IMG/VR virus record: IMGVR_UViG_3300027902_000006
Location: 64,001-128,000 of that record
DNA length: 64,000 bases
Strand: one strand, 5' to 3'
Source of the DNA: a virus
The notes under the pieces were generated by a model. It worked only from the letters and a program-made list of their open reading frames with translations, had not been told where the DNA came from and ran no database searches. Below are positions 31,144 to 60,232 of the stretch, in pieces. Position numbers and translations under genes: made by a program. Within the stretch, counting starts at the first letter, position 1. Each line of letters opens with the position of its first letter.

Positions 31144-32128
31144 TCAAGACCATAACGTGTTTAAAGTTCGGACCTGTAAACACACATCTGTCCTTTCCGA
31201 CAACCACGTCATGAGTAAAGTTTAGAATCTGTTCTAAGTAAAACGGATTAATAAAGATTTTAAACTCCGGACCTGTGTAGTCCACATCTAGTTCTTCCTC
31301 TACCCAACCTAACTCCTTTTGCCCTCGACAAGTTATCTTGCCAGTAGAAAAGACTAACTCAACTTTAGTCTCAAACGAAACTTCAGTAACGGTCATTATA
31401 CGACAACGTGCTAGTGCTTCTGTCATATCTGGAAGAGTGATTGTCGGGCCATCTACCATCGTATAACTCGCTATCTTTTCTTCGTCAAAAAACTCTTCTT
31501 CCATCTTCCGCACACTAAAAACCAAGCCTCCTGCCTTAAAATGAACCCAATTCTCATCAACAAGAAGATGCGTAGGATCGTACTTTTTAAGTTTTGACAG
31601 ACAAAACCCAGGCAGGAGAAAATCAAATGGACTAGGCTCTTGCAATATAATGTGAGTTACTCTATAGCCGTCTGAGCTTATTACAGAACGATCCTTAACA
31701 TGAACGCATGTAAACTTAGGACGTGTCATATTTTTACTCACGGAGAATTCTGACATCTTAATGGCAGAGAACAGATCGGGTGAAAAAGATTGCCACTCAC
31801 CTGAGACGCTAACCGGAGGATATGAAACCTCCAATATGGAAATTCCTGCTCTTACTTTTCCACAAGTCAAGCGGAACTCAGTTCCCTCTGTAAAGATTGT
31901 CACATCTTCACTAGGTAGTTTGGCAAGAATCTTTGTGAGTTCCTCTGCTCGCACTCCTCCGTCAACTCCCGACTCAAACGGAATGGAAACAAAGATTCCA
32001 TCATCAAATGTGACAATGTGATCGTTATGAAAGCGGAAACAGACATTCTGTTCAATGATATCTTTCTGTGCTAGTCCGGGTGAAAGTTTATTCAGTGTCT
32101 CTATCAGAGTCGATCTTTTTACATTCAT
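31133..32128 (-). CDS. dnaN: DNA sliding clamp (beta-clamp-like)
   Basis: 331 aa, SSDGYR, FINPFYL; adjacent to clamp loader. Confidence 0.7.
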   Translation of the reverse strand: MNVKRSTLIETLNKLSPGLAQKDIIEQNVCFRFHNDHIVTFDDGIFVSIPFESGVDGGVRAEELTKILAKLPSEDVTIFTEGTEFRLTCGKVRAGISILEVSYPPVSVSGEWQSFSPDLFSAIKMSEFSVSKNMTRPKFTCVHVKDRSVISSDGYRVTHIILQEPSPFDFLLPGFCLSKLKKYDPTHLLVDENWVHFKAGGLVFSVRKMEEEFFDEEKIASYTMVDGPTITLPDMTEALARCRIMTVTEVSFETKVELVFSTGKITCRGQKELGWVEEELDVDYTGPEFKIFINPFYLEQILNFTHDVVVGKDRCVFTGPNFKHVMVLIDV

Positions 32129-32507
32129 CTGGAGTCTTTCTCCTCATTGTGATTTTAACTTTCGTTTTAGGTTCTAGTTCTATACTCCAATTGTAGTTAG
32201 AGTACCAATTCCCCCCCGTAGACCGCTCTACGGGTTGGTATGGTAAATGTGTTTCGTACATTCGAAATGTTGAAACCGGATCTGGAATCGGGGAGTAGGC
32301 CGATGGTAGTACCAGAGGTTCAGACGAACTCCCCGGCACTCCCCACGAATAGATACTAGTAGGGAATTCACGCCTAGACCAAGGAAATTCGTCAAAGGTA
32401 AGTTCAGATTCTTCTACAGTTCGGACTTCAGACGTTTCTTCGGTAGAAAAGAACTTACATGCTTTAGTTTTTCCTTTCTTCACCGCCCTCTTTTTACGTC
32501 GACGCAT
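32088..32507 (-). CDS. low-complexity protein with VKITMRRK motif
   Basis: ORF between clamp loader and clamp; carries the recurrent motif. Confidence 0.5.
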   Translation of the reverse strand: MRRRKKRAVKKGKTKACKFFSTEETSEVRTVEESELTFDEFPWSRREFPTSIYSWGVPGSSSEPLVLPSAYSPIPDPVSTFRMYETHLPYQPVERSTGGNWYSNYNWSIELEPKTKVKITMRRKTPDECKKIDSDRDTE

Positions 32508-33426
32508 GATGAGTTACTCCTTGGTAACAAGCAAGTGTCAGACCAACTTCTTTAGTATGAAAGAATGGTTCCGAGAAGCACTCAATTAAGATTGCCGCTT
32601 GTCGATTAGGATGTTCCAACAACACGGCCTGACAATAGCGTAGTACAGCCCACCTAATCGCTTCTGGGTCTTTTTCTTTAAGACGAGTGAGAATAGATGC
32701 TACATCTTTCCAATCTGCCTTGTCCAAAAGAGCTTTGAGTAATTCTCTTACTGTAGATTCTTGGGAAGAACTCTCGATGGCTTCAAGCAACGCTCTTTCA
32801 TCGAGAATGTCTACTACTTTATCCAAGATCACTAATGCTTCACGAGGTATCCCGTGACAGACGTCTTCCCTACTGATTTGTTCTATAGCCTTCTTGGGGA
32901 AATCAGACACGCTAGCTGCTTCCAGTACGCTATTGAGTAGTCTGCGTATTTCTCCGGCCTTTAGAGGCTTAACTTCGAACCGTCTACACCGGGACAAGAC
33001 TGTCCCAGGAAGTTTGTCTGGATTCGTAGTACATAGAATGAATACGACATGCTTAGGAGTAAATTCTAGAGCATCTAGGAGACAGTCCCAAAAGTCACCC
33101 GTGGCTCGTTGGCACTCATTGAGTAGATAGATTTTGATGGGACCACCCATCGGTCTAAGTCGCATGTTACTATCAAGTTCTCTAGCTTGGTCTATCCCCC
33201 GTGTATTGGAGATATTCAAGTGGTGGAAGTCTATTTCGGCACAACCCATCATGTCCTTAACGATGTATGCCAAGGTTGTCTTCCCACAACCCCTTGTTCC
33301 AGAGAAAAGCAAAACTCTAGGTGGGTCTTCTGATGTTAGATTAAGTTGCAGAATCTCTTTTAAAGAGTCGTTTCCGAAAAACTCTCTGAGCGTCTTGGGT
33401 CTAAAGTCGATATGAAGTGGACTCAT
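32494..33426 (-). CDS. dnaX: clamp-loader AAA+ ATPase (DnaX gamma/tau-like)
   Basis: RPKTL, GTRGCGKTT, LNECQ, LCTT.P, SRC. Confidence 0.85.
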   Translation of the reverse strand: MSPLHIDFRPKTLREFFGNDSLKEILQLNLTSEDPPRVLLFSGTRGCGKTTLAYIVKDMMGCAEIDFHHLNISNTRGIDQARELDSNMRLRPMGGPIKIYLLNECQRATGDFWDCLLDALEFTPKHVVFILCTTNPDKLPGTVLSRCRRFEVKPLKAGEIRRLLNSVLEAASVSDFPKKAIEQISREDVCHGIPREALVILDKVVDILDERALLEAIESSSQESTVRELLKALLDKADWKDVASILTRLKEKDPEAIRWAVLRYCQAVLLEHPNRQAAILIECFSEPFFHTKEVGLTLACYQGVTHHAST

Positions 33427-33563
33427 TCTACTTCTCCATCATAACTTCTGGTAAATCATCCCGTCCGTAAGACTTGTAGCGCTGCGACCTAGCTCGATGT
33501 AGACAGTTCTCACAGAATTTAGTAAAGGTGGTTTTGGGTTCGTGACACCGAGCACACAAATTC

Positions 33564-33767
33564 TCATTTTGCTTTTTTGGCATCTCTTGTACTCCTTGGA
33601 TGTTCCTTATTAGTACCATTGGCAAAATATTCCAATAGCCTTTCGTCTGTTTCGTTCTGTAAAAAGAAGTAGGACAGCAATCTGAACGGATATTGCGCTT
33701 CAGTTAACACATCACCTTGTGAATCCTCCTCTAACCAAGTGGCTGTGTAGATCTTTGTCATTTGCAA
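33564..33767 (-). CDS. small protein resembling a detached DpdA/TGT-barrel segment
   Basis: KIYTA...RLLSYFF pattern; downstream of dpdA. Confidence 0.35.
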   Translation of the reverse strand: MQMTKIYTATWLEEDSQGDVLTEAQYPFRLLSYFFLQNETDERLLEYFANGTNKEHPRSTRDAKKAK

Positions 33768-34005
33768 CGCCCCCTTAAGTCCGAATAGCTATAACCAAGA
33801 CTTCTCTATCTACACATCGCAGGTAGATAATGGTAACTGTTGAGTTCTTCAAAGGCTATACCGTGGGCCATAAGAAAGATTTTAGCTTCCATCTCAGTGT
33901 TAAACACAAGGTAGTCAGAACTGTCGTCCTCCATCAGATACTCAAACGGATTCAAACAGACGCCCTCTTGGAACCTAGCCACAATGACTTCCATACATAC
34001 CTCCC

Positions 34006-34590
34006 TCAAGGTTTATGTTTTCGAAACACAATGAAATATGAATGAAACTTACGCGCATGTACTTGTTTCAGTTGCTTGGGGTGTATCATCCTATGTTTTG
34101 CCAACAAAATGAACAAATCTACAGGTACGAATCCGATTTTACGTGCCCTGTTAAAAATCTCTACATGTGTAAAATTATTCTTCCCGCTTAGGACACCGTC
34201 TTGACACTTAAAGACTAGCCAACCAGAAGAAATAAGAACTCTATAGATCTCGATCATTGCTTGCTCATAAAAGTCCCAGAGGTCTTCTATAGTTCCGATT
34301 AACTCTCCAAATTGTTTCTTTAAAGTTGCACCGGGACCCGTTCTGGCCATGAAAGGTGGATCGTAGATTATGGAACTCAAACTACTATCCTTAAAGGGTA
34401 GATTTCTTACATCGGCAGGAATTACATCTGGAAATCTCGGAGACAAATCTAACTTGTACTTAGGTTGTGGAATTTGCTTATAGAAGTTCCCTCCACCATA
34501 AGTTACATCACATTCCACTGGACCAGTGTGAAGATCGGAAATCCAACGCAAAATGTCGTGTTGAGAATATGAAATAGATGGGATAATCAT
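34006..34590 (-). CDS. amino (N6-A/N4-C) DNA methyltransferase
   Basis: DVTYGGGNFY, IIYDPPF, VFKCQD, HARK.HSYF. Confidence 0.75.
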   Translation of the reverse strand: MIIPSISYSQHDILRWISDLHTGPVECDVTYGGGNFYKQIPQPKYKLDLSPRFPDVIPADVRNLPFKDSSLSSIIYDPPFMARTGPGATLKKQFGELIGTIEDLWDFYEQAMIEIYRVLISSGWLVFKCQDGVLSGKNNFTHVEIFNRARKIGFVPVDLFILLAKHRMIHPKQLKQVHARKFHSYFIVFRKHKP

Positions 34591-35414
34591 TCAATTTCCA
34601 ATGGTGTGGCTGTGCGTCGAAACGGCCTAGGCCAAGGCAGTTGTTCTGCTAGTCCTACCATAAATCTAACATTCACGAAGTCCCTCCGTCTATACTCAGA
34701 CTGTAACTCTTCCATAGAAACACTTAGAGTTTCTAGATACGAGAGAACTTCCTGTTGTTCGGCTTTTTCAAGAGTTGTAAAGTGTTTTCCTACATTATCT
34801 AATGAGGGAGAACGATCAGAAACAACAATTTTATGTGGAGAAGTTACAAAGTCGTACTTTCCCCCAATCTTCTTAGGAATCCAGACAGTACCATACCTAC
34901 TTGTGTGAACCCAAGCCGTACTATCGACACTTGCCCAAGGAAAACGAGTCATGAGCATATGACTTGTAACAGCAAAACCGTGGAATTTAACAATGGGCAT
35001 TCCTTTTGGATCTGTTACATACTTCATACAGAGATGAAGCCATTCATACTTCTCTTTTGTAGTTCTATCATTGGCAGGGCTTAGACCGATGTACGGCATT
35101 TCTGCTATCATACGTTCTAGCCAGTAGAACTCCTCGCCTTGATGAAATACGTGGATAAGTTTTTCGACTGGGATGCCCCTACCTCGCATATAAAGATAGT
35201 TTTCCCATCCCTGTCTTGCACTTTCTTCTCGTACTTCCTGTGATAGTTGTTTCTGCCCAAACTTTCCTGGGATAACGTCTACACTGACAACATAATTAAC
35301 CTTATCAAGCCACTTTAAACAGAAATTAGTATAGGCTTCTATGTCTATCGTTGTTTGTTTCGTCCACGCACTAAAAGCCCCGGAGTCTAAAATGATATCA
35401 AGTTTCATTGTCAC
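34587..35414 (-). CDS. dpdA: DNA 7-deazaguanine transglycosylase (TGT-like)
   Basis: LDSGAFSAW, VDVIPG, HVFHQGE, YIGLS, FHGFAVT, SVDSTAW; in que cluster. Confidence 0.8.
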   Translation of the reverse strand: MTMKLDIILDSGAFSAWTKQTTIDIEAYTNFCLKWLDKVNYVVSVDVIPGKFGQKQLSQEVREESARQGWENYLYMRGRGIPVEKLIHVFHQGEEFYWLERMIAEMPYIGLSPANDRTTKEKYEWLHLCMKYVTDPKGMPIVKFHGFAVTSHMLMTRFPWASVDSTAWVHTSRYGTVWIPKKIGGKYDFVTSPHKIVVSDRSPSLDNVGKHFTTLEKAEQQEVLSYLETLSVSMEELQSEYRRRDFVNVRFMVGLAEQLPWPRPFRRTATPLEIE

Positions 35415-36080
35415 CTACAGAATCAGACGAGGAACGTCTCGTCTACGGAAGTAGTCCCTTGCTCCATCCTTAACCTGTGATTTAACATAGGATGCACGAT
35501 GTTTAACTCCCGTGTTATCCATGTATCTGTTCAGGTATTCAAACTTCCACATGACATCGTCCATAAAATGTTCTATATCCTGATAGGGTCGAAACACAAC
35601 AGGACAACCCAATAACCAGTTACGCCCAAAGTGTGTTTTTGTTAAGAGAACGGTATCCGTTCTCTTATCCCTTCGAAACTGAATTAGTGGAAACATACAG
35701 GTAATGGGATTGTTCCGATGTATTTTACAACCTTTTATACTAAATGGGCAAGGCTTCCCCTCAAACGCATTGACAAAATATGAGATAGAGTTTCCATTAA
35801 AAATGAGGTCTAACGATTCTCCTGTCATTTCAGGACAGGCCAACTCTTTTTGTGTGAAGTTCCAAAATCCAGAACAACAAGAACAACCAAGATGTTCAAG
35901 ACAAGAATAGTACCGTTCGAACAGCAATGGACTTATTTTAAAATTACTCACAGGTACTAATGAGAAGTTCTTATCTTTACATCGTACTTCGACAGGTTCT
36001 AAGATCATGGCTTCGATATAAGACAGTTCTTTTTTAAGACTTGTAACAAAGTTATGTGAAGTCTTCTTACAAAAAGCCAT
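35415..36080 (-). CDS. Cys-rich (CxxxxxCxCC...CPF...C.IH...P..C) metal/Fe-S-binding protein
   Basis: YkgJ-like Cys pattern; located between queF and dpdA. Confidence 0.55.
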   Translation of the reverse strand: MAFCKKTSHNFVTSLKKELSYIEAMILEPVEVRCKDKNFSLVPVSNFKISPLLFERYYSCLEHLGCSCCSGFWNFTQKELACPEMTGESLDLIFNGNSISYFVNAFEGKPCPFSIKGCKIHRNNPITCMFPLIQFRRDKRTDTVLLTKTHFGRNWLLGCPVVFRPYQDIEHFMDDVMWKFEYLNRYMDNTGVKHRASYVKSQVKDGARDYFRRRDVPRLIL

Positions 36081-36085
36081 TTGTC

Positions 36086-36496
36086 TTAACTCTTCTTGTA
36101 TGATGCTGTGACAGCTAGGGCAATACCCCCACGGATGTTAAAGTCTCCGATGACAGTCATCTCTCTTGGAGAACAGACGGCTACTAAATCATCGAGGATT
36201 TTGTTAACAATTGTCTCCATGAAAGAACCATGATTTCTAAACGCAAATAGGTACAACTTTAGGCTTTTCGTTTCGACGCACAACAAATCTGGAATGTAGC
36301 TTATTGTAATAATTGCGAAGTCTGGTTGTTTCGTACGAGGGCAAAGACTTGTCATCTCATTACAAATTAGCTCAACACTAAAATTCCGATCTGTATTTTG
36401 ATTCGGAAATGTTTCTAACATCTCTTTTGTTGGATTATCATATGTGTAAACTGTCTCTTTCGAGCCTAATTGCTTAAGGTGATCTACTTTATCCAT
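36086..36496 (-). CDS. queF: preQ0 reductase (type I)
   Basis: LETFPN, EMTSLCP.TKQPDFA, VETKSLKLYL..FRN.G.F.E, RGG. Confidence 0.92.
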   Translation of the reverse strand: MDKVDHLKQLGSKETVYTYDNPTKEMLETFPNQNTDRNFSVELICNEMTSLCPRTKQPDFAIITISYIPDLLCVETKSLKLYLFAFRNHGSFMETIVNKILDDLVAVCSPREMTVIGDFNIRGGIALAVTASYKKS

Positions 36497-37049
36497 TGTA
36501 TTCTCTCTCCACTATGTCTAAAAATTCCGCTCTTGCGGCTACATCTTCCATAAATATTCCGCGAACTGTTTGTGTTACCATCTTAACTCCTGCTACTTTA
36601 ACTCCGCGACAAGCTTCACATAAATGTGAGGCCGACATGATAACCATACATCCCTTGGGTTTAACTTCTTCCATGAAAGAATCAGCTAACTGCTCCGTAA
36701 GTTCTTCCTGAATCGACAGCTTTGCAGTGGTGTGTTGTATAAATCTGATTATCTTAGATGCCCCTACGACCCGACAATCTGGAATATAGCCAAAGTGTAC
36801 CACACCACTGAAGTTTAGCATATGATGTTCACAATAGCTATTGAAAGGGATTCCGATTCTTGCTACAATTCCACCGTAGCAAGAACCGAAATCTTTTAAC
36901 GAAAAGTCAAAAGGTTGATACCCTCTGAACATTTCCTCATAGGCTTTGGCTACCCTGAACGGAGTTTCTTTCAAGCCCTCACGCTCAGGATCTTCACCTA
37001 TGGCGGTTAAGAGTTGTCTTATTAGGTTCTCTATGTTTTCTTTGTTCAT
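36489..37049 (-). CDS. folE: GTP cyclohydrolase I
   Basis: GEDPEREGLKETP.RV, SYCEHH, G.SK, IQE.LT, H.C..CRGV. Confidence 0.93.
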   Translation of the reverse strand: MNKENIENLIRQLLTAIGEDPEREGLKETPFRVAKAYEEMFRGYQPFDFSLKDFGSCYGGIVARIGIPFNSYCEHHMLNFSGVVHFGYIPDCRVVGASKIIRFIQHTTAKLSIQEELTEQLADSFMEEVKPKGCMVIMSASHLCEACRGVKVAGVKMVTQTVRGIFMEDVAARAEFLDIVEREYNG

Positions 37050-37082
37050 ACCTTACCTGTTATGAAATTGAGGGTTAATCAA

Positions 37083-37667
37083 TCAATCTAATATACCTAG
37101 AACGCGTTGTCTGTCTTCTATCATCCGTGCTTTTCTACGAGTTCTCATCACAGTTTTAGCTAGTCGTTCGCTTTCCAGTTGTGCTTGCTGGGACTCGGCA
37201 GTTCGTAGAACACCGATTAAGAAGTTGGCTCCGTTCTCTAGAATTATATTACGTTCTATGAACAACGATTTTTCGTCTTCCGTATAAGCACAGAGAGCCC
37301 GTTGTGTATTTATTAAGTATTGTCTCCTGTATTGGCTTCCTGTCTCTTGACCCTGTTTAATAATTGCTACAATAGCCATGTCTCGTCCAGAACGAAAGCG
37401 GACGCCCCTATCTCTATCTACAGTTAACTCACAAGGATAACTGGCTCGTCTGAAGTACGAGTTAAGGTCCCTCACCCAGAGATTACGACTTACAATCCAA
37501 TTTTTGTATTCCAACGTTTCTGGTTCAGGTAGACTTCCTGCCAATACCCAATCTAGGGTGAACGATTCCCACGATAGACGTCTTTCCGGTCGTTCGTGCC
37601 ATAATCTCTCGGCTACGTGCGCGATCATTCCATAATACCCATAAGACGACTTTGCACTATACCTCAT
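37083..37667 (-). CDS. hypothetical protein
   Basis: ORF coupled to the ParB-like gene. Confidence 0.5.
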   Translation of the reverse strand: MRYSAKSSYGYYGMIAHVAERLWHERPERRLSWESFTLDWVLAGSLPEPETLEYKNWIVSRNLWVRDLNSYFRRASYPCELTVDRDRGVRFRSGRDMAIVAIIKQGQETGSQYRRQYLINTQRALCAYTEDEKSLFIERNIILENGANFLIGVLRTAESQQAQLESERLAKTVMRTRRKARMIEDRQRVLGILD

Positions 37668-47070: not shown

Positions 47071-48027
47071 CTACTCCTCCAAAACTGTAGGATGGTCTGG
47101 GACATGGAGAACATACTTCTTCCAATGTCTCCGCAGCATCCGTTGGTAATCTTCCTTGGAATATCCTCGTTTAGTTGATCCGTGCCACTCGAAGAACTGC
47201 ATGAGCCACCGTTGATGAAACTTCGAGAAGAGCCTAAACCAGTCTAGCGTGATACAGATGTTAGGAGTATAGGAATAATTATCAGTGAGAAACTTACAAT
47301 AAGCTTTGATGTATCCATAGAAAACTCCTCCTCTCATCACTGACATTCCACCTGATGTAAGAATCGGTTCTATTTCCGCGTCATAATAAATACGATGTTT
47401 TCTGACGACGGAAGCTATGGTCGATTCGCGATGATTAGTCATACATACTTCTTTGACTGCTTTTACACAAATGTCGATAACCTCGTCTTTCTCAGGAACT
47501 GACGGATCGCCTTTAATAAAAGCGTAGAGGAACCAACTCATCGGTCTGTACTGATTAAATTGAGTGGGTGGAGTATAGATTGCGTTAGGAAGGCCGATGG
47601 GAGGATGCTTCATAGCGTTTAGTCTCCGATAGACTTCTACGCGTTCGTCCATAGAGAATTTACGGTCTAGGAGAGGGTGTATCTGACTAGGCTTGATCCC
47701 ATTCTCACCTAGACGTTCGACGAGTTCGGAGACATTTACGTTGAGTCTCAATTCCCCCCTGTCAAGTATGTGAATCCATTTTACGGCTTCCTTGTAAACC
47801 CCCGAAGCTGGATTACGATGAGTACGCAGGTTCGGAAATGAATTCCAGACATCATCAATCTCTGGACAGTTTCTAATAGGTTTAGGAGTTTTCGTCGGAA
47901 GAGTTTTAAGTGCGTTCTTATCTTTCTTTAGAGCCTCTTTAAGTTTAGCTGCATTACCTTCAACTCCAAGTTGGAAGTCTAATCCTGTTTTATTCCCCGT
48001 TGTAATAATCGGATTTACATCTTTCAT
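47071..48027 (-). CDS. hypothetical protein (replication-module associated)
   Basis: AGGAG SD; 318 aa; no recognised motif. Confidence 0.5.
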   Translation of the reverse strand: MKDVNPIITTGNKTGLDFQLGVEGNAAKLKEALKKDKNALKTLPTKTPKPIRNCPEIDDVWNSFPNLRTHRNPASGVYKEAVKWIHILDRGELRLNVNVSELVERLGENGIKPSQIHPLLDRKFSMDERVEVYRRLNAMKHPPIGLPNAIYTPPTQFNQYRPMSWFLYAFIKGDPSVPEKDEVIDICVKAVKEVCMTNHRESTIASVVRKHRIYYDAEIEPILTSGGMSVMRGGVFYGYIKAYCKFLTDNYSYTPNICITLDWFRLFSKFHQRWLMQFFEWHGSTKRGYSKEDYQRMLRRHWKKYVLHVPDHPTVLEE

Positions 48028-48468: not shown

Positions 48469-48486
48469 ATTATGAAATTATGATCA

Positions 48487-49032: not shown

Positions 49033-49401
49033 AATTAGGCTCCAAGGTTTATTTTCTTCTAATCTCTTACTAAGCTCGATGCTTCGGTCGTATCGGGCTT
49101 AACTTTTTTATTCTACTATTTTAACGGTCTTTTCTCTCAGGAGTTTCATGATCGCTGCTCTGTTATTACAACAGTCTAGAAGAAACTTTTTATGCTTGCG
49201 ACACATATTGTTATGTGCCCAGTTCTGAAAGTCCAACTCCTTTAGACAAGCTTTACAATGGGTCCATTCTTCCTCAGATTCGATTTCGTCTTTGTAAGCC
49301 CAGAATCGTCTTCCACACATAACACATTTATCATAGTGCCTTGGTTTTGTTCTCTGAAACTTTAATACTTTCTCTTCTTTACTCATGCATCACCCCCAAT
49401 A

Positions 49402-49442
49402 TCCACTCTAGAGAGTAAATCTTACCGACTCTCTAGAGTGGA
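49402..49442. terminator. intergenic hairpin
   Basis: TCCACTCTAGAGAGT-11 nt-ACTCTCTAGAGTGGA. Confidence 0.45.
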
Positions 49443-51078: not shown

Positions 51079-51114
51079 CCAATTATAAAACCCGCCACAA
51101 AGGTGAAAATTCCA

Positions 51115-51345
51115 TCACCCCATTCCATCGGTTTCTTCCTCGTCCAACGCGTCGAACTTTACTGATTCGACCTTTAGGGAGATGTGTCCTCCCCGGTCAA
51201 CTATCTCTCCTTCCACAACTTGCAGTCTTGCCACATCTCTGGCGTTATAACATTCTACTACTTAGATAAGGTTATGAAGTTGAACGAACTCGGAAACAAG
51301 TTCTGCATTCGATAGTCCATGTGCCCAAGTAGCGAGGGTTGTCAT
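51115..51345 (-). pseudogene. 77-codon ORF broken by an in-frame TAA
   Basis: AGGAG SD, MTTLATW...HNLI-TAA(51262-64)-VVECYNARD...GMG-TGA in one frame, filling an otherwise empty gap. Confidence 0.55.
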
Positions 51346-51711
51346 GTTATCTCCTCATCAGGTCTTCTGCTACGATGTTTTTAAATCTTACTTCCTTACG
51401 TGCAGCGAGGAACGATTGCCTAGCGAACTCTGTAAATACTTCCTCTTTGTAGTTGGGATTCGTGCCTTCTAGGCAACGGGCCACGTCGGAGATAACTTCA
51501 ATTGCTTGTCCAAAGGTTTTCCGTTTGTGTGCCATCCTTACGGCCAAACTTTTTGCGATGTTCTGGTAGTCCTTTTTATGAAGCATCTTGAACCTCCTTT
51601 TTGTTCAGGTTAAGTGGGAACATAAATCGTTTACCGATACAGATCGCTCCACATGTTTTGCACCAAAAAACCGGATCATCGTGAGTCATTCCCACTAGTT
51701 TCATTTTTGCT

Positions 51712-52122
51712 TTACATCGACAGTTCATTAGAAATCTTCTTCTCACCTTGGGTGTTTACTTCGCGCAGAGTCTCCCATCCTGTTCGTGGCGTCTGTAAAA
51801 CGAGTTTGTTTGGAAAAAAGATAGCCGTGGGTCTTGCTGGCTTCTCTTTATACTCCCACCATTCGGAACCATCGTATTCGTGGCGTTCCATCCACCAATC
51901 ATCTCCAACTATGAGAAGGTCGACGGCGATTTTGGCAGCTCCGAATCCGTTATTATACTCTGTTCCAGCCGCGACGACTAAAAAGTCGTCTATGGGAACT
52001 TCTTCGGTTTGAGTTCCGACCCAACGGATGTCGCGTATAACTTTACCATTGTCTGAAAGTACTCTGTTAGTTTCTTCAAGAAGATTCATAGCGTCTCCTC
52101 TGTATCGGGTAGTGGACACCAC
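51712..52122 (-). CDS. conserved phage protein (MNLLEET...ER.EYDGSEWW type)
   Basis: motif; real start 52089. Confidence 0.6.
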   Translation of the reverse strand: MVSTTRYRGDAMNLLEETNRVLSDNGKVIRDIRWVGTQTEEVPIDDFLVVAAGTEYNNGFGAAKIAVDLLIVGDDWWMERHEYDGSEWWEYKEKPARPTAIFFPNKLVLQTPRTGWETLREVNTQGEKKISNELSM

Positions 52123-52444
52123 TTGGGAAAAGGATCGTCTGACATAGGTATGACTTTACGAGGCTTCGTTTTTGTGCAGTGATATTCTTCTTGGCCAAAG
52201 TAGAAGATGAAGGGACATTGGATACATCGTCGGATGTCCAGACTGATGTGTTTCACATCGTCTCCTTTAGTTCCGGTGCGTCCGGTAAAGGGCACCAGTT
52301 TGGATAAGGGGTATCGAAGAGCGTTAGAATTAGGGGAGGGTCTTTTCCCCATCTAGGATGTTCACACATTGCCGGAGCGTCGTGTGGATTGGGCATGTAA
52401 GGGCATTCCATACATCCAGTGATTTTCATTACGACTAACTTCAT
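52086..52444 (-). other. tandem pair of small Cys-rich paralogs (C..CP...C...P.WCPLPD)
   Basis: ORFs 52253-52444 and about 52086-52256 share the pattern. Confidence 0.55.
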
Positions 52445-52866
52445 AGTGTCAACTCCTTAACGATAAGAGTAAAGCAGGCCATCAGGTGAGGTGAGATTTG
52501 CTGGGATAAACTCTGAGAAGCCTCTCGGTTTTTCACCACAGTCCCATGCCATGAAGAAAATTTCCATATGCGGTTCGTTCTTCTCGAACCAGTCTGCCGG
52601 AGCCGTTGACTTTCTGACCAGAACGAGATCCCACTTATTTTCACCTACTTCTCTTGCCCAATACAAACCGGGAGTAGAAAGTTCTTCCATTTTCATAGTC
52701 TTATCTCCTTATCTTATTCGACAGTGTCGATCTATGGCGACTACTCTTAAAACAGTCTGCCATCTAGGATGATTCTCGTTGAAAAAATCTGGAGTGAGAG
52801 TGCTACACTCCAAGTCTCCCTCTTTTGACATCACAATGGAGAGTTCTCTAATCATGTCAGAAATTT

Positions 52867-53133
52867 TCATAGTTTCGGCTCCTTTCTCCTTTGAGTTATT
52901 ATAAAAGTCTGAGCAGTTGTTAACTCTAACTTGTGTTCATAGAAAAGAAACGCGTCCCCATCGTTAAAAATGACCTTGTAGAGGAATCTGTGTTCGGGAT
53001 AATCTATTGCTCGTTTAATGTAGGTAACTTCTCCTACGTCCTCATATCTAAGTTCTCTTTGATCAACGACTTTAACCATCTCCCCAATCAAAAATTTAGA
53101 CAGGGACTCATCTTCCATATTAGGTTGGGTCAT
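52867..53133 (-). CDS. SH3/KOW-like small protein with FIITQRRK tail
   Basis: F.IGEMVKV...GEV...YKV.F. Confidence 0.55.
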   Translation of the reverse strand: MTQPNMEDESLSKFLIGEMVKVVDQRELRYEDVGEVTYIKRAIDYPEHRFLYKVIFNDGDAFLFYEHKLELTTAQTFIITQRRKEPKL

Positions 53134-54002
53134 AATTTCAACTCCTCTCTTAGAGATTTAACTTCGTCAGTCGTTAAGTCATCTGGGTCTCCGTGATGGA
53201 GAGTTATGATGTGAGTTTCCAGTCCTAGGCTAGACAGAGTCGAACTCAACTTTTTAGCTTTCGCTTGTGCGAGTGGCTCTGCGTCGTACATAATGAAGAC
53301 TCTTTTGGGTTGGATACTACTGAGAAGTTCTACTTGTGCTAAAGAATACGCCGTTCCGAATGTTGCTAATGCACCATCACCGATTCGCCATGCGTCGAAG
53401 ACCCCCTCAACTATGACGATGGTGTCTTGGATAAAGTCTAGTCCATAAAAGATTTCTTTGTGAGGAATTATTTCTTGGTCTTTTGGACATGCTTTAGTTT
53501 TGAGTTTTGCTACTCCAGTAATGTCTCTCGAGTGATATGAGACTTCTATTTTCTCATAGGTGATCGGAAAGATCAATCGAAATCGGAAGTTTCCAGTAGG
53601 CCCAGTTCCTTTTATTCCGTATTTTTTTATAACAAAATCTGGGTCGAATCTCCGCTTCTCTAAGTAGTCTCTGTGGTAGCTCTGTAGCGGGCCTCCGGGT
53701 ATTACTAGTGGTTTCTTCTCAATCTTGATTTCAGGTAGGGTCGATTTTCCCGAATATACTTGGAGGAGTCTCTCGGCCTCACTTGGCGTGATGTTCAGAA
53801 GTTTAGAAATAACCTTCGGCATGGGGGACCAGCCACAGCGCCAGCAGTGATAATAGACTTCTTTACCTGTGGCATTGAACCCCCCATGGTCACTTTTGTC
53901 GTGACAAATTGGACAGCCAGTATTAACCCAACCAGGGGTTACGTTCTTCCCAGACGTACTGAATGGGATATAGTGATCTTTAAGTAGACGTACTATGTCC
54001 AT
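53130..54002 (-). CDS. DNA primase (Zn finger plus TOPRIM)
   Basis: CPIC.D...H, CWRCG, YL..R, IVEGVFDA, MYD, GDPDD. Confidence 0.85.
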   Translation of the reverse strand: MDIVRLLKDHYIPFSTSGKNVTPGWVNTGCPICHDKSDHGGFNATGKEVYYHCWRCGWSPMPKVISKLLNITPSEAERLLQVYSGKSTLPEIKIEKKPLVIPGGPLQSYHRDYLEKRRFDPDFVIKKYGIKGTGPTGNFRFRLIFPITYEKIEVSYHSRDITGVAKLKTKACPKDQEIIPHKEIFYGLDFIQDTIVIVEGVFDAWRIGDGALATFGTAYSLAQVELLSSIQPKRVFIMYDAEPLAQAKAKKLSSTLSSLGLETHIITLHHGDPDDLTTDEVKSLREELKL

Positions 54003-54703
54003 CTTGTTTCCTTACCCATCAAATAAATTGAGTAGGTAACTAAAATTGTAGGGTTTCTTGTACGTTAATTTGGCTAAAATACCGTGCCACAAGGTGTATG
54101 TTTCGCAATTAACAGAATAGTCTCCACAGTTTAATTGACACATCCACCAAAGGGCAAGAGTCATATCTGTCTCCTCTCTCGCTCTTGAAATTGTTTGCCT
54201 AAACCCTGTCTAGGCGGTATTATCATCCATGCTCGGCCTCCAGAGCGACCTTGGCAGCTAGGAGGATTGCACGGCCTAGGGAAATATCTCTACGGCTCAC
54301 TTCGAGCCCATCGAAATCTTCCCAATGCCCTGAGTCGGGGATATATTTCGCTTCCCAAGCTACCCCTAAATCTGTTAGTTGACTCAACCACCCCTTCTCC
54401 CGCATCTTCTCCACCACCATCATCCAGTGGTTGGCGTTGGTGAGGGGTAGCCACGAAGCCACAGGCATGATTATCGTATCTTGTGGATCTATGCTTAAAT
54501 CAATTTCCTGCCTATTGACCCACAGAGAATGAACGTAAGTTCCATCCGAAAGAGTAGGATGGAACCATTCCATAACCTCTAGGGCTATCCACTCCATCAG
54601 TTTCCTGTCTTCGTCGGTCATTTTCTTCTCCTTCCATAAGCGAACCCGAATCCACCTAGGAAAGCCATTACACTCAGGATGGCTAAGATTATTTCAGAGT
54701 CGA

Positions 54704-55578
54704 TCATGGCAATTCTCCTTTGGCTTTGAGGGCTTGTATCGTTCTCTTCGCTGACCGGTTCATTGCCTTCACTACATCTGGAACTTGCAATAGCACCCGC
54801 CACAACTCAAGACGTACCTTGCAATCGGCCAACTCATGCCGCAATTTCATTACCGTTTTACCGTAGTTTTCCAACTCTATTTCGTAGGCTGTGATTAACA
54901 AATCTCTGCTGCCCACGGCAGCTTGGGCATCAACCAGCTTCTCTTGCAGGGTGGCGATCTGTCGGTCTTTGCAGGCGTCCCCCAACATCAATTCTCCATC
55001 GTTAAATGATCTGGTGCCGCACTCGAATTGTTTGTGAATTGCCACAGCACCACAAGAAACATACTCATATTTAGTTTCTGCCTCGCATTTAGGACAAGTC
55101 TCCATCACAGTTCTCCTTTAACTTTAAGTTGGGTTATACACATGTCGATCTCGGCATGAACTTCCCAGGCTTCGCGACTATCTGAATCAGGTATGAGTTC
55201 AAGTTCTTGTTTACGATGGGCTAACTCTCGCCATAGCTCGAGTCTTCCCTTGCAATCGGCCAATTCCTTAACCATACCCAGCCATGCTCGGGTGGCTAAC
55301 GCGTCCCGACGCAGTTCTCCCCAAGCCTCTCTTAGTTGTTCCCGCAGATGATCAACCTTTGTGGTCAGGGCTTCAAGGTCTTGGAGTAGCTCGTGGTTTC
55401 TGTCGTTCAATTCCCCGGAACTGTCCCAGACCTCTTTATATTTTTCTTTTAGATCCTTGTTTTCGGCTTGTAGAGCTTCGACTTGTTTCGCATGTGCTAA
55501 TTCTCGACAATCACAGCCATGGTGATGTGTAGTACATCGTTGGGCACGTCGTTCTAGTGCCTTCAGATCAGTTTTCAT
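54704..55578 (-). other. two adjacent coiled-coil ORFs sharing a C-terminal module
   Basis: ELADCK.RLELWR and LK.KGEL in both 54704-55108 and 55105-55578. Confidence 0.55.
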
Positions 55579-56055
55579 CTTTGTCTTCTCCTCCTGACTT
55601 TTTTAGTCATGACAGTCCCCTCGGGTTCCTCTGCGCCTTTTATTCTAACATAGATAGCTTGGCGCAGAGGTCGGCGACAGTCCTTACATTGTGGATAGAG
55701 TTCTGGATTATTCTTACGAGTGATACATGCTTCTATGTGCATCATATGATGCTGTTTAAGTTTAAGACAACGTAAATATGTTATTTTGGTATAGTACTCT
55801 AATTCTTCGTCAGACATTGTTAACCTCGTTCTTCGTAGTCCTTATACGCCGCGCGTAGTGCCGTTCTGACATCCTCGAACCACCCGTCCTTCTCGATGAA
55901 AAAGGAGGTTACAATGTCTTGGGCATCGTCGCCCTCGGGGACGTTTTGCATTCCGTCGAAGGCAACGGCCCAGTGTCCATTATCGTCACAAATAAGTGCC
56001 GGACAAGATCCATCGGACGCAGCCTGTTCTAACCAATCGAGCAGTCTCGTATCGT

Positions 56056-56442
56056 TCATGTCTTTCTCCTTTGTTGAGTTATTTGAATGTTTGCTGTGGG
56101 TTTAGTAAAGTTCCCACGCCTCTTCGTACCATCTAGATAGTGAGCTGTCCATGCATAGTCTGAGTTGATTCCACACGCTTCGAAGATACCGGTTTGTGTA
56201 TTAACCCACTCTTCCAGTGTCTTGTCTTCTTCTTCTCCGTCAAACTCATCGACGGGATACCATCTATCACCACAACATTCGCAGTCTCGTCCTCCAGATA
56301 CTCCGTGGAAATAGATACCGATGTCTTCGGCTTTTGCGTTGGCTTGGTTTGCACTCTCTGCCTCGATATAGACGTACCAGTCGACATTCTCATCTTTTCG
56401 TACCATGCCTCCTGAATTATTCTGACGAAATAGGTACCACAT
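56056..56442 (-). CDS. conserved phage protein (QNNSGG...GIYF.G...DC.CCGDRW) with IQITQQRRK tail
   Basis: motifs; AAGGAGG SD. Confidence 0.65.
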   Translation of the reverse strand: MWYLFRQNNSGGMVRKDENVDWYVYIEAESANQANAKAEDIGIYFHGVSGGRDCECCGDRWYPVDEFDGEEEDKTLEEWVNTQTGIFEACGINSDYAWTAHYLDGTKRRGNFTKPTANIQITQQRRKT

Positions 56443-56782
56443 TTTTGACCTCCTTTCTTGTGATTGTGATAGTGATGGGAGTTTTTGGAGTTAGATGAAG
56501 TTTATCATCGTAGAAGTAGAAAGGTTTGATAGTAAGTCTTTGTAGGATGGGTGCGCGTTGCCATGTGGAGTATACGGCGGGATCGGAGAAGAGTTCTCTT
56601 ACATGTCCTTCACTTTTCCATCCGTGAGTGAAGACATGAGTATCTGTATCGGGGTCATTTTCAGTTCTCATACGGGATGCCCAATACTGCCGTGGAATGT
56701 AAAGACTAAGTTCCTTGTTCTGTTCAAGCTCTCCTAGATACATCGTCTCTGTGTCCATGATGATTTCATCACCGATTCTCAT
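56417..56782 (-). CDS. small protein with PITITITRK tail
   Basis: AAGGAGG SD. Confidence 0.5.
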   Translation of the reverse strand: MRIGDEIIMDTETMYLGELEQNKELSLYIPRQYWASRMRTENDPDTDTHVFTHGWKSEGHVRELFSDPAVYSTWQRAPILQRLTIKPFYFYDDKLHLTPKTPITITITRKEVKNVVPISSE

Positions 56783-58089
56783 TTATCCCTCCTTTGTTTA
56801 TACAATTTCATTAACTCTTTGAGTATTTCTGTATCTTCGGGTTTCTTTCCATCCATAATTTTTGTAATGACTTCACGTTTCCTATCAATAAGAGTGAGAA
56901 TATCCTCTTCTACTGTCTTGTCAGCTATTAGGTAATAGATATTGACTGCGTTCTTCTGGCCTATACGGTGAGCCCTGTCCTCACATTGTTCGTGATCACT
57001 TGGAGTCCAACCCAGTTCAACAAATGCGACATGATTTGAGGCCGTCAGATTGATACCAACACCCGCGGCCTGCATGTTCCCAACGAAGAGTTTAATCTTT
57101 GGGTTGTTCTGAAAGTCATCTATAGCTTTTTGTCTTTGTTTAAGGTCTTCCTTTCCGGTGAGCCTAACTGCAACCTTTTTGAACTTTTCCATGAGAAGGT
57201 CTACAATCTCGTGGTGATGACAGAAGGCTATAAGTTTGTTGTTTTCTATGACATTGGCTATCCAGTCTATAACTAAATCCATCTTCCCTCGTGTAGCGAC
57301 TCTTTTAAGATTGGAAAAGTATTGGAGTGGATTGAGGTCATTCTCGTTTAGGGCTTCTTTATATTCTCGGATATTGTTGATAGAAAGTGGGATGACTGTT
57401 CTAAGCTTGTCTGGAAGCTCTTTTTGAACTTCTGATTTTAGTTTCCTAATGGTACACGTTCGTGTAATTTTTAGGTTGAGTTCATCTAGATTCGATGCAC
57501 CACTAGTATCTAACCCCCATCGTGTTCTTTTCGCCTGACAATAACGTTTAGCATAGCCCCACCAAGAGTTGAACATACTCGGCCTGAGAAGGGCTAGGAT
57601 GTTATAGAACTCAATGGGTCTATTGATTATGGGAGTTCCCGAGATTGCGATGATATGGGGAGTTCTGACAGCGAGGGAAATGGTTGCGCGACTACGCTTG
57701 GCGTTACGGTTTTTGAGATACTGGCATTCGTCGAGGATGACTACTTGTGGTTTTACTTTAAGTAGTGCCGGAAGCCATCCGAAAACGATATCATAGTTAA
57801 TAATGATGTAGTGATCTGAGTAGGATTTTAGCGAGGACGGTTTGAGTCCTTCGAGAATTACGACTTTTGGATTTTTGGTCCATTTATACAGTTCACGTTT
57901 CCAATTAAGTTTAAGGGAGGCCGGACAAATTATCACAACCGGTTTACGCTTAGGATGTTTTGCAGTCCAGTGAATTGAGACGGCCGACTTTCCCAGACCC
58001 ATCTCTAGGGCTAGGAGAGCACGTCCATTCCATTTTTCCAACTGTTCAACACTTTCCTTTTGAAAAGGAAATAATTCTAGTTTCGCCAC
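56779..58089 (-). CDS. SNF2-family (HARP/SMARCAL1-like) helicase
   Basis: EMGLGKS, ICPASL..NW, LDECQ, SGTPI.NRP, G.GINLT, Q.EDR.HRIGQ. Confidence 0.9.
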   Translation of the reverse strand: MAKLELFPFQKESVEQLEKWNGRALLALEMGLGKSAVSIHWTAKHPKRKPVVIICPASLKLNWKRELYKWTKNPKVVILEGLKPSSLKSYSDHYIIINYDIVFGWLPALLKVKPQVVILDECQYLKNRNAKRSRATISLAVRTPHIIAISGTPIINRPIEFYNILALLRPSMFNSWWGYAKRYCQAKRTRWGLDTSGASNLDELNLKITRTCTIRKLKSEVQKELPDKLRTVIPLSINNIREYKEALNENDLNPLQYFSNLKRVATRGKMDLVIDWIANVIENNKLIAFCHHHEIVDLLMEKFKKVAVRLTGKEDLKQRQKAIDDFQNNPKIKLFVGNMQAAGVGINLTASNHVAFVELGWTPSDHEQCEDRAHRIGQKNAVNIYYLIADKTVEEDILTLIDRKREVITKIMDGKKPEDTEILKELMKLYKQRRDK

Positions 58090-58097
58090 TTAATTTA

Positions 58098-58622
58098 TTA
58101 AGACTCCAGAAGGTCATCGGAGTAGATTATATCAATCCCGAGTTTGGACAAGCAAGTATTTACTTGTTGCTCACTGATGGGTCTTCTATTCCACGTATCG
58201 TGTCGTAACAGTGCGTCTAGGTAGTAGATGGATTGTTGTGAGTTACGTTTTTTCGTGGCGCTTAGTGTATTTCTTAGTATAGCAAAAGAATTTCTAAGAT
58301 GGGTTGGGATACGATAAGTCCAGTTTCCATCATAGTAGACGTAAAGTTTAGGGTTATCGGACAAAGGTTTAAACTCAGTTTCACCCTTACGCCGTTGTAG
58401 AATCGTGCGTGTGATCTTCTCTACTAGTTCTAAGTCTTTAGGTCTGTAGTCATTTTGATATTTGTTTTCAAACTTAACGGTGCACCAGGTTGTGTGGGGA
58501 CGTTCTACCTGGGCATGTATAATCGTTCCAATCATACCCGCAGGAGTTTGCCCATAGAACTCACTTGTTGTGCTGATGACGACTTTATCGCCTTCTTTGA
58601 ACATAAGACTTAGTCCTCCCAT
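58098..58622 (-). CDS. SH3-like domain (paralog of 42081/42345) with internal KITRTILQRRK and an extra domain
   Basis: GDKVVI...SEFYGQ.P...IGT. Confidence 0.55.
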   Translation of the reverse strand: MGGLSLMFKEGDKVVISTTSEFYGQTPAGMIGTIIHAQVERPHTTWCTVKFENKYQNDYRPKDLELVEKITRTILQRRKGETEFKPLSDNPKLYVYYDGNWTYRIPTHLRNSFAILRNTLSATKKRNSQQSIYYLDALLRHDTWNRRPISEQQVNTCLSKLGIDIIYSDDLLES

Positions 58623-58825
58623 TTCCAGCAGAGTGGCTTAAAGTGGCCATTCATTTTGTGGCGCAAGTTGGGTTTTCCTTCACAACTTAGATCTACGATG
58701 AGCGTGGGGAGACCTGAATCTTCAACAATCTGGGTGCTGGAGATTTGATACTTTCCAGTATAAAGTTTAAGAAACTCACTATTTGTTATTTCAACCCACA
58801 TAAATCCCCCTTTTATTTTATCGAG

Positions 58826-59344
58826 TTATTGCCGTTTTCCAAGTCTTTTCTTTATAGTTATAGTCTGTTTCCTAACGAGCATATGACCATTCCAGGTCAT
58901 CTGTGCGAAGGAACGAGGGAAGGCGTGTTTGAACAATTGTACGGAGAATCTACAGGCTTTGAGTTCAGACGACCCGAAGAGATGATGTCCGAGTTCATGA
59001 AGTCCTGTAATTATAGAAATGGGTAGCCTCAGTAAAATCATCCCTCCTTTTTTACCGGGAATGTGTTGGGAACTCCCAGGAGCGTTTGTCACTCCGACGG
59101 CTAACTTGGGTCCCCCATATAACTCATTCAGTTGGGCTAACAAAATTACGAGAAGATTTGCCTTCTCCAGTTCATTCTTCTTCGCCCAGTTCTTAAAATA
59201 GCGATTCTTCCATCTGACTACGACATCGAGTGCCTCTGGATGGAACTCAAAGTCTTTCGCCATGATTTCTTTAGGAGTTGGATACGGATTACAACCGATA
59301 AGCCGAGTGAGAGAACGGAGAAAATCATTCAAGGAATGGCTCAT
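58826..59344 (-). CDS. HExxH zincin-like protein with ITIKKR tail
   Basis: GLHELGHH...E. Confidence 0.5.
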   Translation of the reverse strand: MSHSLNDFLRSLTRLIGCNPYPTPKEIMAKDFEFHPEALDVVVRWKNRYFKNWAKKNELEKANLLVILLAQLNELYGGPKLAVGVTNAPGSSQHIPGKKGGMILLRLPISIITGLHELGHHLFGSSELKACRFSVQLFKHAFPRSFAQMTWNGHMLVRKQTITIKKRLGKRQ

Positions 59345-59586
59345 TACAGTTCCTCCTTTTGTATTTTTCTAGTGCAGGTAATTTTCATGTTCGTCGGAGG
59401 CAGGTTCACAGTTATTCTTCCCTGTTTGATAAAAGTTACTAGGGTTCTTAGCGAGTATTCGAATTTGTTCAGCGTGTCGTTGTCCAATAGTGTACCTATC
59501 TCCTCATTTATTGTACATATTGTGAAGATTTTTTTAGTTGATTTTTCGTGTATTTCCATGCCTGGTCTGAAGTCTTTGAGCCTCAT
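59344..59586 (-). CDS. small beta protein with MKITCTRK tail
   Basis: ORF, motif. Confidence 0.5.
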   Translation of the reverse strand: MRLKDFRPGMEIHEKSTKKIFTICTINEEIGTLLDNDTLNKFEYSLRTLVTFIKQGRITVNLPPTNMKITCTRKIQKEEL

Positions 59587-59744
59587 CTTTTAGTTCTCGT
59601 TTTCAGTGATGAAGTTGATGTTAACTTTATAACTTCTCCTCACCTCTTCTAGGAAAAGGTACTCGGAAAGCAAAGTGGGTTTTTGACTTAGAGTTGTTGG
59701 TGATAGAGAAAGAAGCAGTTTTTCCAGTGCTTGTTCTTTAGTTA

Positions 59745-59975
59745 TCATAGAGTCCTCTCTTTTCGTTTCACGGTGATTTTAATGGGAGAACGCGCTATTA
59801 ATGTATTAGCACGAAGATATCTGTTCATGTCTTTGAACGTTACGGTGAAGACTGAGACGGGAGAATCTTCCTTATCTGTTTTTAAAGTTAGGACAGTGTT
59901 TAGAGGGTCTACAGTAGTTACTGTATAGAGTATCGCCTTATCTTTACTCGTGAATTGTTGGCCTATATAGAACAT
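59745..59975 (-). CDS. small beta protein with PIKITVKRK tail
   Basis: GAGGT SD, motif. Confidence 0.55.
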   Translation of the reverse strand: MFYIGQQFTSKDKAILYTVTTVDPLNTVLTLKTDKEDSPVSVFTVTFKDMNRYLRANTLIARSPIKITVKRKERTL

Positions 59976-59986
59976 TAAATTTTACC

Positions 59987-60232
59987 TCACTTTCTTCTCA
60001 TGGTGATTTTCACTTCTTCAGTGGGTAGGACCATTAGAATTCTGGTCCGAAGATGACTTCTGAGTACAAACTTAGAAAGTCTCGTTTCTTGTCGTGGTGA
60101 TGGATAATAACATTTTAAAGTGACCCATTTCTCGGAGACTGCTGTGACTAAAAACTTAAAAATTAATCTGTCTCCAGAAAAAACACATTGTCCGAGACGT
60201 TGGCCTACAAAGAATTCTTTCTTAGTTTCCAT
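59987..60232 (-). CDS. small beta protein with VKITMRRK tail
   Basis: ORF, motif at extreme C-terminus. Confidence 0.55.
   Translation of the reverse strand: METKKEFFVGQRLGQCVFSGDRLIFKFLVTAVSEKWVTLKCYYPSPRQETRLSKFVLRSHLRTRILMVLPTEEVKITMRRK

Follow-up and report, generated by a model that had tools for sequence, protein, structure and literature searches.

A short C-terminal tag, P-[IV]-K-I-T-x-R-R-K, recurs on 25 small proteins from the non-structural arm of one phage genome

Twenty-five small proteins encoded by a single phage genome carry the same short peptide, with the consensus P-[IV]-K-I-T-x-R-R-K across the 25 aligned tails, at or close to their C-termini. The genome is the linear IMG/VR virus record IMGVR_UViG_3300027902_000006 (140,478 bp; estimated to be 92% complete), and the stretch analysed here, hereafter the window, is the 64-kb piece corresponding to bases 64001-128000 of that record. 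All tag carriers are minus-strand open reading frames (ORFs) of 67-158 amino acids (aa) lying within genome positions 96-137.5 kb; 13 of the 25 are located in the window (Table 1) and 12 just past its end, at genome 130.8-137.5 kb. The distance from tag to stop is 0-15 residues, with the tag forming the extreme C-terminus in nine carriers and 1-15 more residues following it in the other 16. Structural genes, including those for terminase, portal and an HK97-type major head protein, occupy the plus strand from ~4 to 54 kb, and all genes from 54 kb to the right genome end lie on the minus strand. The carriers are non-structural proteins, all encoded in the non-structural arm, on the strand opposite to the head genes.

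The carriers form a discrete class, and the tag occurs far more often than expected by chance and strictly at C-termini. A six-frame scan with a loose pattern returned 28 matches on the minus strand versus 2 on the plus strand, and the count of 25 was obtained once three chance matches and double counts had been taken out of the six-frame matches. Among 1000 shuffles of whole-protein residues, on average 0.25 proteins (maximum 3) had a C-terminal match, and shuffling only the last 25 residues, which retains the basic composition of gene ends, gave a mean of 0.61 (maximum 4). The frequency is therefore above background, as an earlier note, made from the window sequence alone, had implied, and matches elsewhere in proteins do not exceed chance (2 seen vs 1.9 expected). 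In a tail profile, 24 carriers score 19-33 bits and the best non-carrier in the genome 4.3 bits; the remaining carrier, 46775-47125, was used in building the profile and is absent from the protein set scored. When each carrier was left out of the profile in turn, 21 of the 25 kept at least 9 bits. The tail core is 55% identical, compared to 7% for the 13 residues upstream of it, and the threonine, arginine and lysine of the tag are invariant or nearly so. The same note had listed about 16 sites in the window. All 14 that it placed at or near C-termini were confirmed as in-frame, minus-strand sites, and 13 of them are solid (the tagged ORFs of Table 1), the remaining one, 58826, being borderline at 0.8 bits. 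Its two internal sites fared less well: 39424 was rejected as a solid member (4.3 bits) and 58098 as a member at all (1.0 bit).

Selection acts on the amino acids of the tag and not on its DNA, because the information is three-periodic, synonymous codons are genome-like and out-of-frame copies are lacking. In a codon alignment, positions 1-2 of the isoleucine, threonine, arginine and lysine codons hold 1.3-2.2 bits and position 3 holds 0.02-0.3 bits. The threonine codons ACA/ACC/ACG/ACT are used 8/4/5/8 times, versus 7.1/4.2/4.4/9.3 expected from genome usage (p=0.95); synonymous usage at threonine, isoleucine, proline, lysine and the second arginine equals that of the genome (p 0.16-0.95), and the invariant second arginine is written with both AGR and CGN codons. 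All 25 copies share one reading frame, and a DNA weight matrix applied to both strands recovered only known copies or one-codon shifts of them, with no copy in another frame, between genes or on the plus strand. In the paralogues 42081 and 42345, the tags are identical as amino acids and differ by two synonymous changes, and the linker preceding the tag is unalignable. The protein-level selection proposed in the earlier note on the basis of codon variation is thus borne out, and equal occurrence of the motif in other frames, which by that note would have spoken against the tag, is not seen. Eight ORFs run well past the tag, and in five of these the next gene begins within the extension, from which the post-tag residues look like tolerated read-on, with no need for a free carboxyl end directly after the tag. 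A slippery frameshift site was ruled out, as no X-XXY-YYZ heptamer was found.

The proteins that carry the tag belong to several unrelated folds. BLAST and an iterated profile built without the tails place eight tagged proteins in one SH3-like family, which also takes in four proteins without the tag, namely 58098, two multi-repeat proteins (343 aa with three repeats, 237 aa with two or three) and a 69-aa protein of weak membership. Three further carriers reach 25-31% hhalign probability to this family; judging from these sequence comparisons, eight carriers are certainly SH3-like and about eleven probably so. The AlphaFold model of the SH3-like body is a five-strand barrel with a mean predicted local distance difference test score (pLDDT) of 73, for which Foldseek returned CPH/Mib-Herc2, Pif1 SH3-like and KOW domains with weak E-values from 7e-3, and one carrier has a weak Tudor-like ProQ_C match. 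A different body is found in ORF 56056, a DUF7296 protein (E=4e-27) with a confident alpha/beta fold to residue 111, which has no structural match in PDB and none to the SH3-like family. ORFs 46501 and 46775 are the only carriers with transmembrane (TM) segments and, according to hydropathy scans, bear the tag behind the second TM helix, on the basic side. Two Trp-rich acidic carriers form a pair, about ten carriers have no detectable family, and a homologue search with ORF 32088 retrieved only itself. The diversity of carriers described in the earlier note is therefore real in that several bodies are unrelated, but was overstated given the eight certain and about eleven probable members of one family; its remark that the core enzymes do not carry the tag is correct.

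In both AlphaFold models the tail is devoid of secondary structure (pLDDT ~55), that is, it is predicted to be disordered rather than to form the beta-strand that the earlier note had envisaged. The tail is also absent from homologues in other phages: of the DUF7296 homologues listed for other genomes, 119 in number, not one has it. The closest of these, at 56% identity, terminates directly in K-R-R-K only, from which it seems that in the present phage the I-T part was placed ahead of a basic end already encoded by a Shine-Dalgarno (SD) sequence.

We found the tag in no other genome. An exhaustive profile search of 1.84 billion protein representatives (E<=0.001) returned only seven of the phage's own proteins and five proteins of 655-5,236 aa, the latter taken as artefacts since most align over multiple segments and both of those examined are built of repeats. 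With seven of the 25 own tails passing the threshold, per-protein sensitivity is about a quarter, at which a relative with a similar set of tags should still have appeared. A word-indexed search of 22-79-aa proteins likewise gave own proteins only. At the DNA level, a pattern for I-K-I-T-M-R-R-K was present in nine stretches of IMG/VR, at least 118 stretches of JGI metagenomes and 85 stretches of 185,579 bacterial genomes, all as single matches, of which ORF scans put only scattered ones near an ORF end; the peptide pattern [IVT]-K-I-T-[MVQ]-R-R-K matched 42 stretches across all of IMG/VR, estimated to be at or below chance, and none was confirmed. Relatives of the genome itself were equally scarce. 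Megablast against GenBank phages revealed no early-region relative, searches for loci with the amidoligase and the clamp returned nothing, an exact-protein look-up over contigs returned nothing, and the SNF2 helicase led to a single relative (43%), without tags; relatives of the portal (67-72% identity) are only 9-26 kb structural fragments, also without tags, with those near 70% identity coming from the IMG samples 3300009506 and 3300010413. The papers searched contained neither a description of the tag nor the tag strings, in agreement with the earlier note, which knew of no described system of this kind. The best reading of these searches is that the tag is lineage-private and, as far as searched, present in this one genome.

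What, then, might the tag do? With a little more confidence than doubt, we favour the view that it acts as a common handle for one cytoplasmic factor, being a short linear motif private to this lineage and carried on a flexible tail. It has the features of such motifs, namely 3-10 conserved residues in a disordered tail on unrelated bodies, with homologues elsewhere lacking it. Docking or handling by short linear motifs is a known principle, and as an observation the tag is well established. Under the proposed mechanism, the tag would follow directly on the last beta-strand of 25 small cytoplasm-facing proteins and, as an extended strand with alternating hydrophobic (I-I-M/V/Q) and polar (K-T-R) faces, could add to one reader protein, with the R-R-K cluster resting on an acidic patch of that reader. 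A single cytoplasmic factor, of either phage or host origin, might thereby act on all of the clients, by docking, modification or disposal. Two carriers are two-TM proteins with the tag on the cytoplasmic side, which speaks against two routes put forward in the earlier note, capsid loading and a DNA-clamp hub as the general reader; capsid loading is further disfavoured by the location of all carriers in the non-structural arm. Co-folding of an SH3-like domain with the tail alignment, based on the idea that the SH3-like domains themselves are the readers, gave a score of 0.02 (mark 0.32) and counts neither way.

The tag may have originated in steps. SD codons within gene ends (AGG AGA AAR, AAG GAG) endow many proteins of this genome with basic C-termini, just upstream of which a hydrophobic-[KT]-I-T-hydrophobic stretch was presumably added, with repeated emergence in disordered tails and spread through expansion of the SH3-like family accounting for the present set. 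The case would thus show a possible route of motif birth, in which SD codons supply a basic C-terminus and a few added residues make a specific signal. If the handle interpretation is true, a single factor deals collectively with about one-tenth of the genes of the phage, which has ~250 proteins, and with one-third of the small genes in the non-structural arm. Among genes of unknown function, those for small early and accessory phage proteins make up the largest pool, and the nine-residue peptide offers a direct experimental way into it, by which the factor could be found and the 25 orphan proteins classified in one go.

Several points weigh against a common handle. No reader or other partner was found, nor any direct evidence for the capsid-loading, protease or clamp routes named in the earlier note, the interpretation of which is overall partly supported. 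The collections searched hold no close early-arm relative, and with 8-11 of the 25 carriers on one fold the pattern is partly a family trait. The remaining points concern gene junctions, where the next start codon lies 14-35 nucleotides (nt) past the threonine codon in 21 of 25 cases and the peptide may have a nascent-chain role in translational coupling. The first arginine alone is codon-biased (AGG/AGA enriched, p=0.004), the R-R-K part being partly explained by SD overlap; Lys-Glu (AAG GAG) is frequent directly after the tag; and a tribasic cluster is present in the last 12 residues of 14 of 129 (11%) untagged minus-strand proteins versus 1.7% of internal 12-residue windows, a six-fold enrichment. 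From the arginine bias, the Lys-Glu pairs and the tribasic ends it follows that R-R-K(E) is partly dual-coded with the SD of the next gene, as the earlier note had noticed for the R-R codons. Throughout the minus arm (genome 54-140 kb), tribasic ends look like a proteome-wide imprint of SDs inside upstream genes.

Taken to its limit, such dual coding would make the codons an initiation or coupling element of the downstream gene, composed of an A/U-rich enhancer and an SD, and the peptide an incidental by-product. The position of the next start codons, the bias at the first arginine with its trailing Lys-Glu, and the tribasic ends of untagged genes speak for this account. However, the nucleotides of an RNA initiation element should be conserved irrespective of frame and also occur between genes, and this behaviour is seen at the first arginine codon only: the 25 copies keep to a single frame with free third positions, threonine uses all four codons at genome frequencies, arginine alternates between the AGR and CGN families, and no gene is preceded by an intergenic copy. 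The SD follows the threonine codon at anything from 5 to 36 nt, the next start is 45-86 nt away in three copies, and copies with CGN-type R-R codons (AGA CGT, AGA CGC, AAA CGA) have a separate SD downstream, so that peptide and SD are not one rigid RNA element. We regard the by-product account as highly improbable, and for the I-T core it is largely refuted.

Alternatively, the tail could be a native C-terminal extension of one fast-diverging family of SH3-like (KOW/CPH-type) small barrels, with no common reader. It would then serve the fold itself, through inter-subunit strand exchange or nucleic-acid contact by its K/T/R face, and recombination at gene junctions would have carried it to a few other genes. 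This account draws on the eight tagged proteins that share a tail-less profile with four untagged relatives, the three more at 25-31% hhalign probability and the Tudor-like match, as well as on the paralogue 58098, in which an N-terminal SH3-like domain is closed by the degenerate internal copy and followed by a further 90-aa domain. In ribbon-helix-helix proteins, DNA-contacting beta-ribbons alternate basic, hydrophobic and threonine residues, and the alternation in the tag may, by analogy, resemble them. Yet the tag is missing between the repeats of multi-repeat SH3-like proteins, and the two-repeat carrier bears it only at its very end; at least 14 carriers show no relationship to the family, including the confidently folded DUF7296 domain and the two membrane proteins; in the model, barrel and tail are not packed together; and the randomised third codon positions indicate that each copy has been kept separately over a long time. 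We therefore hold a mere family trait to be unlikely.

Another possibility is that an enzyme which covalently modifies or degrades proteins uses the tag as its recognition or acceptor site. Candidates would be the two phage amidoligases with the class-II amidotransferase-like protein, acting on the conserved lysine as in pupylation, or a host AAA+ protease for which the tag is a degron that clears early proteins. The invariance or near-invariance of threonine, arginine and lysine exceeds what a docking strand needs, the tail is disordered as in degrons and modification sites, a mixture of soluble and membrane carriers fits a membrane-anchored or cytosolic protease, and the densest tag clusters flank the block of GATase_4-like, Amidoligase_2 and second-paralogue genes on both sides, although neighbourhood in one genome is weak evidence. 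Against this, the tag bears no likeness to known degrons (ssrA LAA, or the MuA-type RRKKAI with its free carboxyl end), more residues follow most tags, and in the genome papers found, phage amidoligase cassettes have no known substrate. An enzyme substrate of either kind appears quite unlikely, and we are very doubtful of its narrower form, in which the tag is the acceptor of a phage protein-conjugation system whose amidoligases join the conserved lysine to an amino acid or small peptide, or act on the tail end. Should that form hold, ~25 of the phage's own small proteins would be modified, as in a viral counterpart of pupylation that has a consensus site, and phage amidoligase cassettes would finally gain a substrate.

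Among known systems, the clamp-binding tails (T4 gp43, gp33 and gp55 on gp45; QL[SD]LF; PIP-box) are similar in that short, often C-terminal, disordered peptides of unlike proteins dock as a strand on a hub, and the PIP-box often has basic flanks, as the tag has R-R-K. The tag differs in that it lacks the conserved glutamine and the aromatic or Leu-Phe pair of the clamp-binding consensus (Q-L-[SD]-L-F, Q-x-x-L-x-x-F-F, Q-x-x-[ILM]-x-x-[FY]-[FY]), and in that two carriers are membrane proteins. The phage does encode its own clamp loader and a divergent clamp, with one tagged gene (32088) between the two. Encapsulin cargo peptides (for example, L-T-V-G-S-L-R-R), which dock on the inner face of an HK97-fold shell, are likewise short portable C-terminal tags with alternating hydrophobics and a dibasic end, and this phage, too, has an HK97-type protein, its major head protein. 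However, the G-S-L or L-x-I-G-S-L-[KR] core is missing, the tag having I-T between K and R. The carrier genes sit amid replication and accessory genes, opposite in strand to the head genes; a candidate late-promoter box was found in the structural module only; and two carriers have two TM helices. The T4 capsid targeting sequence, also a short portable tag, is N-terminal and cleaved, whereas the tag is C-terminal.

Degrons such as ssrA, the MuA-type ClpX signal and the lambda CII tail for FtsH are also short transferable peptides in unstructured C-terminal tails that address one machine, and the MuA-type signal (R-R-K-K-A-I) is basic, as is the tag. But they demand a free C-terminus and a non-polar end, whereas only 9 of the 25 tags are terminal and the ends are basic or polar; a sequence match of the tag to the ssrA, MuA-type or CII signals was not found. 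Sortase and exosortase signals (LPXTG, PEP-CTERM) have a TM helix and a basic cluster after the motif, along with an N-terminal signal peptide; in the tag, R-R-K is not separated from the I-T core by a hydrophobic helix, and in the two TM carriers the TM segments lie upstream of the tag. Coupled junctions with an SD in the upstream gene are matched at most junctions by R-R-K and K-E codons that double as SD, but this explains the basic part only, since the I-T core is conserved as amino acids at variable distance from the SD. A Tat-like signal was ruled out, as the tag is at the wrong protein end and has no h-region.

The tagged genes share the minus arm with a replication set comprising a DnaB-like helicase, a Toprim primase, an SNF2 helicase, the clamp loader, the beta-clamp and a family-A DNA polymerase with a uracil-DNA-glycosylase (UDG) domain, the last two activities being combined in a single 888-aa protein with an N-terminal UDG-superfamily domain (window 27941-30607, minus strand). 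Also present are a class-II amidotransferase-like protein, two amidoligase paralogues and many small orphan genes.

Table 1. Tagged ORFs and related features of the window (window coordinates; distances in nt or aa)
Position	Strand	Feature	Tag or related string and position	Remarks
31133-32128		beta-clamp, divergent		at most 24% identity to any phage clamp
32088-32507	-	tagged ORF, 139 aa, orphan body, between clamp-loader and clamp genes	K-V-K-I-T-M-R-R-K, 32162-32136	tag 15 aa before stop; next gene start 32128, in post-tag extension
39424-40026	-	200 aa, rejected as solid member	S-I-T-V-K-R-K	
42081-42344	-	tagged ORF, 87 aa, SH3-like barrel	P-I-K-I-T-M-R-R-K, 42137-42111	R-R codons AGA CGT, not SD-like; separate SD downstream
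42345-42632	-	tagged ORF, 95 aa, SH3-like barrel, weak DUF4314 match	P-I-K-I-T-M-R-R-K, 42401-42375	R-R codons AGA CGT; Thr codon to next start 45 nt
42629-42889	-	tagged ORF, 86 aa, orphan body	P-V-T-I-T-M-K-R-R, 42667-42641	
43306-43629	-	tagged ORF, 107 aa, orphan body	P-I-K-I-T-Q-I-R-K, 43359-43333	next gene start 86 nt past Thr codon, hence tag outside any initiation region
46501-46884	-	tagged ORF, two-TM membrane protein; longest frame 127 aa, likely start 46773	P-T-K-I-T-Q-R-R-K, 46530-46504	extreme C-terminus, basic cytoplasmic side
46775-47125	-	tagged ORF, at most 116 aa, two-TM membrane protein	P-I-K-I-T-Q-R-R-K, 46804-46778	extreme C-terminus
52867-53133	-	tagged ORF, 88 aa, possibly SH3-like (hhalign 31%)	T-F-I-I-T-Q-R-R-K, 52908-52882	
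56056-56442	-	tagged ORF, 128 aa, DUF7296 alpha/beta domain (residues 1-111)	N-I-Q-I-T-Q-Q-R-R-K, 56091-56062	
56417-56782	-	tagged ORF, 121 aa, orphan body	P-I-T-I-T-I-T-R-K, 56479-56453	tag 11 aa before stop; next gene start in extension
58098-58622	-	174 aa, rejected as member	E-K-I-T-R-T-I-L-Q-R-R-K	degenerate internal copy
58826-59344	-	HExxH protein, 172 aa, borderline	Q-T-I-T-I-K-K-R-L-G-K-R-Q (end)	matches loose pattern
59344-59586	-	tagged ORF, 80 aa	N-M-K-I-T-C-T-R-K, 59391-59365	variant tag
59745-59975	-	tagged ORF, 76 aa	P-I-K-I-T-V-K-R-K, 59786-59760	AAA CGA AAA codons; separate SD downstream
59987-60232	-	tagged ORF, 81 aa	E-V-K-I-T-M-R-R-K, 60016-59990	extreme C-terminus; directly downstream of GATase/amidoligase block
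60340-61251	-	GATase_4-like protein, 303 aa		
61255-63180	-	Amidoligase_2, 641 aa		

The amidoligase block (window 60340-63180 and L140 3162-6710, both on the minus strand) consists of larger genes lying between the two densest tag clusters. Its second amidoligase paralogue (389 aa, phrog_16683/2443) is encoded just beyond the window end, and the rest of the block comprises 305-aa and 154-aa proteins without assignment and the 343-aa protein with three SH3-like repeats. ORF 39424 is made of two winged-helix-turn-helix-like repeats, each beginning S-P-Y-G-H-R, with S-I-T-V-K-R-K located exactly between them. Two untagged SH3-like proteins (L015 5653-6366 and L015 7570-7779, minus strand) have a common other ending, P-P-x-(x)-I/F-x-[VI]-I-[KE]-G-F-stop, which from its sequence may be a second, rarer C-terminal motif. 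Q-N-G-F terminates a protein encoded on the plus strand (genome 8027-8314).

Elsewhere in the minus arm, a full 7-deazaguanine (preQ) pathway is encoded at window 36086-41107 (minus strand), with FolE (GTP cyclohydrolase I), PTPS/QueD, a radical-SAM QueE-like protein, QueC and a QueF-like protein, adjoined by a ParB_N-domain protein; judging by these assignments, the gene set points to modified DNA. At window 13439-13514 (minus strand), beside a tRNA-Gly(GCC), ARAGORN predicts an amber-suppressor tRNA (anticodon CTA), which it labels Pyl. Global recoding of TAG was ruled out, since in each of the three genome parts 18-28% of genes use it as an ordinary stop. Beyond the window, one tagged ORF (L015 7342-7560) has a TAG stop and is in frame with the following gene, such that suppression would fuse the two and make the tag internal.

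With regard to regulatory sequences, an intergenic k-mer search yielded a sole candidate box, the 16-mer AATTTTCTTGTAGTTC, a candidate late-promoter element that is identical at G000:C1 32804-32819 and 37113-37128 (plus strand), upstream of two structural operons, and has looser copies at 17313 and 46272. It was found only in the structural module, with no counterpart upstream of the tagged genes. The minus-strand k-mer ATGGAATG was rejected as a regulatory box because it is mostly coding, and a sigma-70 promoter scan of the right end stayed at background level. At the right genome end (L015 11790-11816, minus strand), the first gene is followed by a strong intrinsic-terminator-like hairpin with 10 pairs, seven of them G-C, and then a T run.

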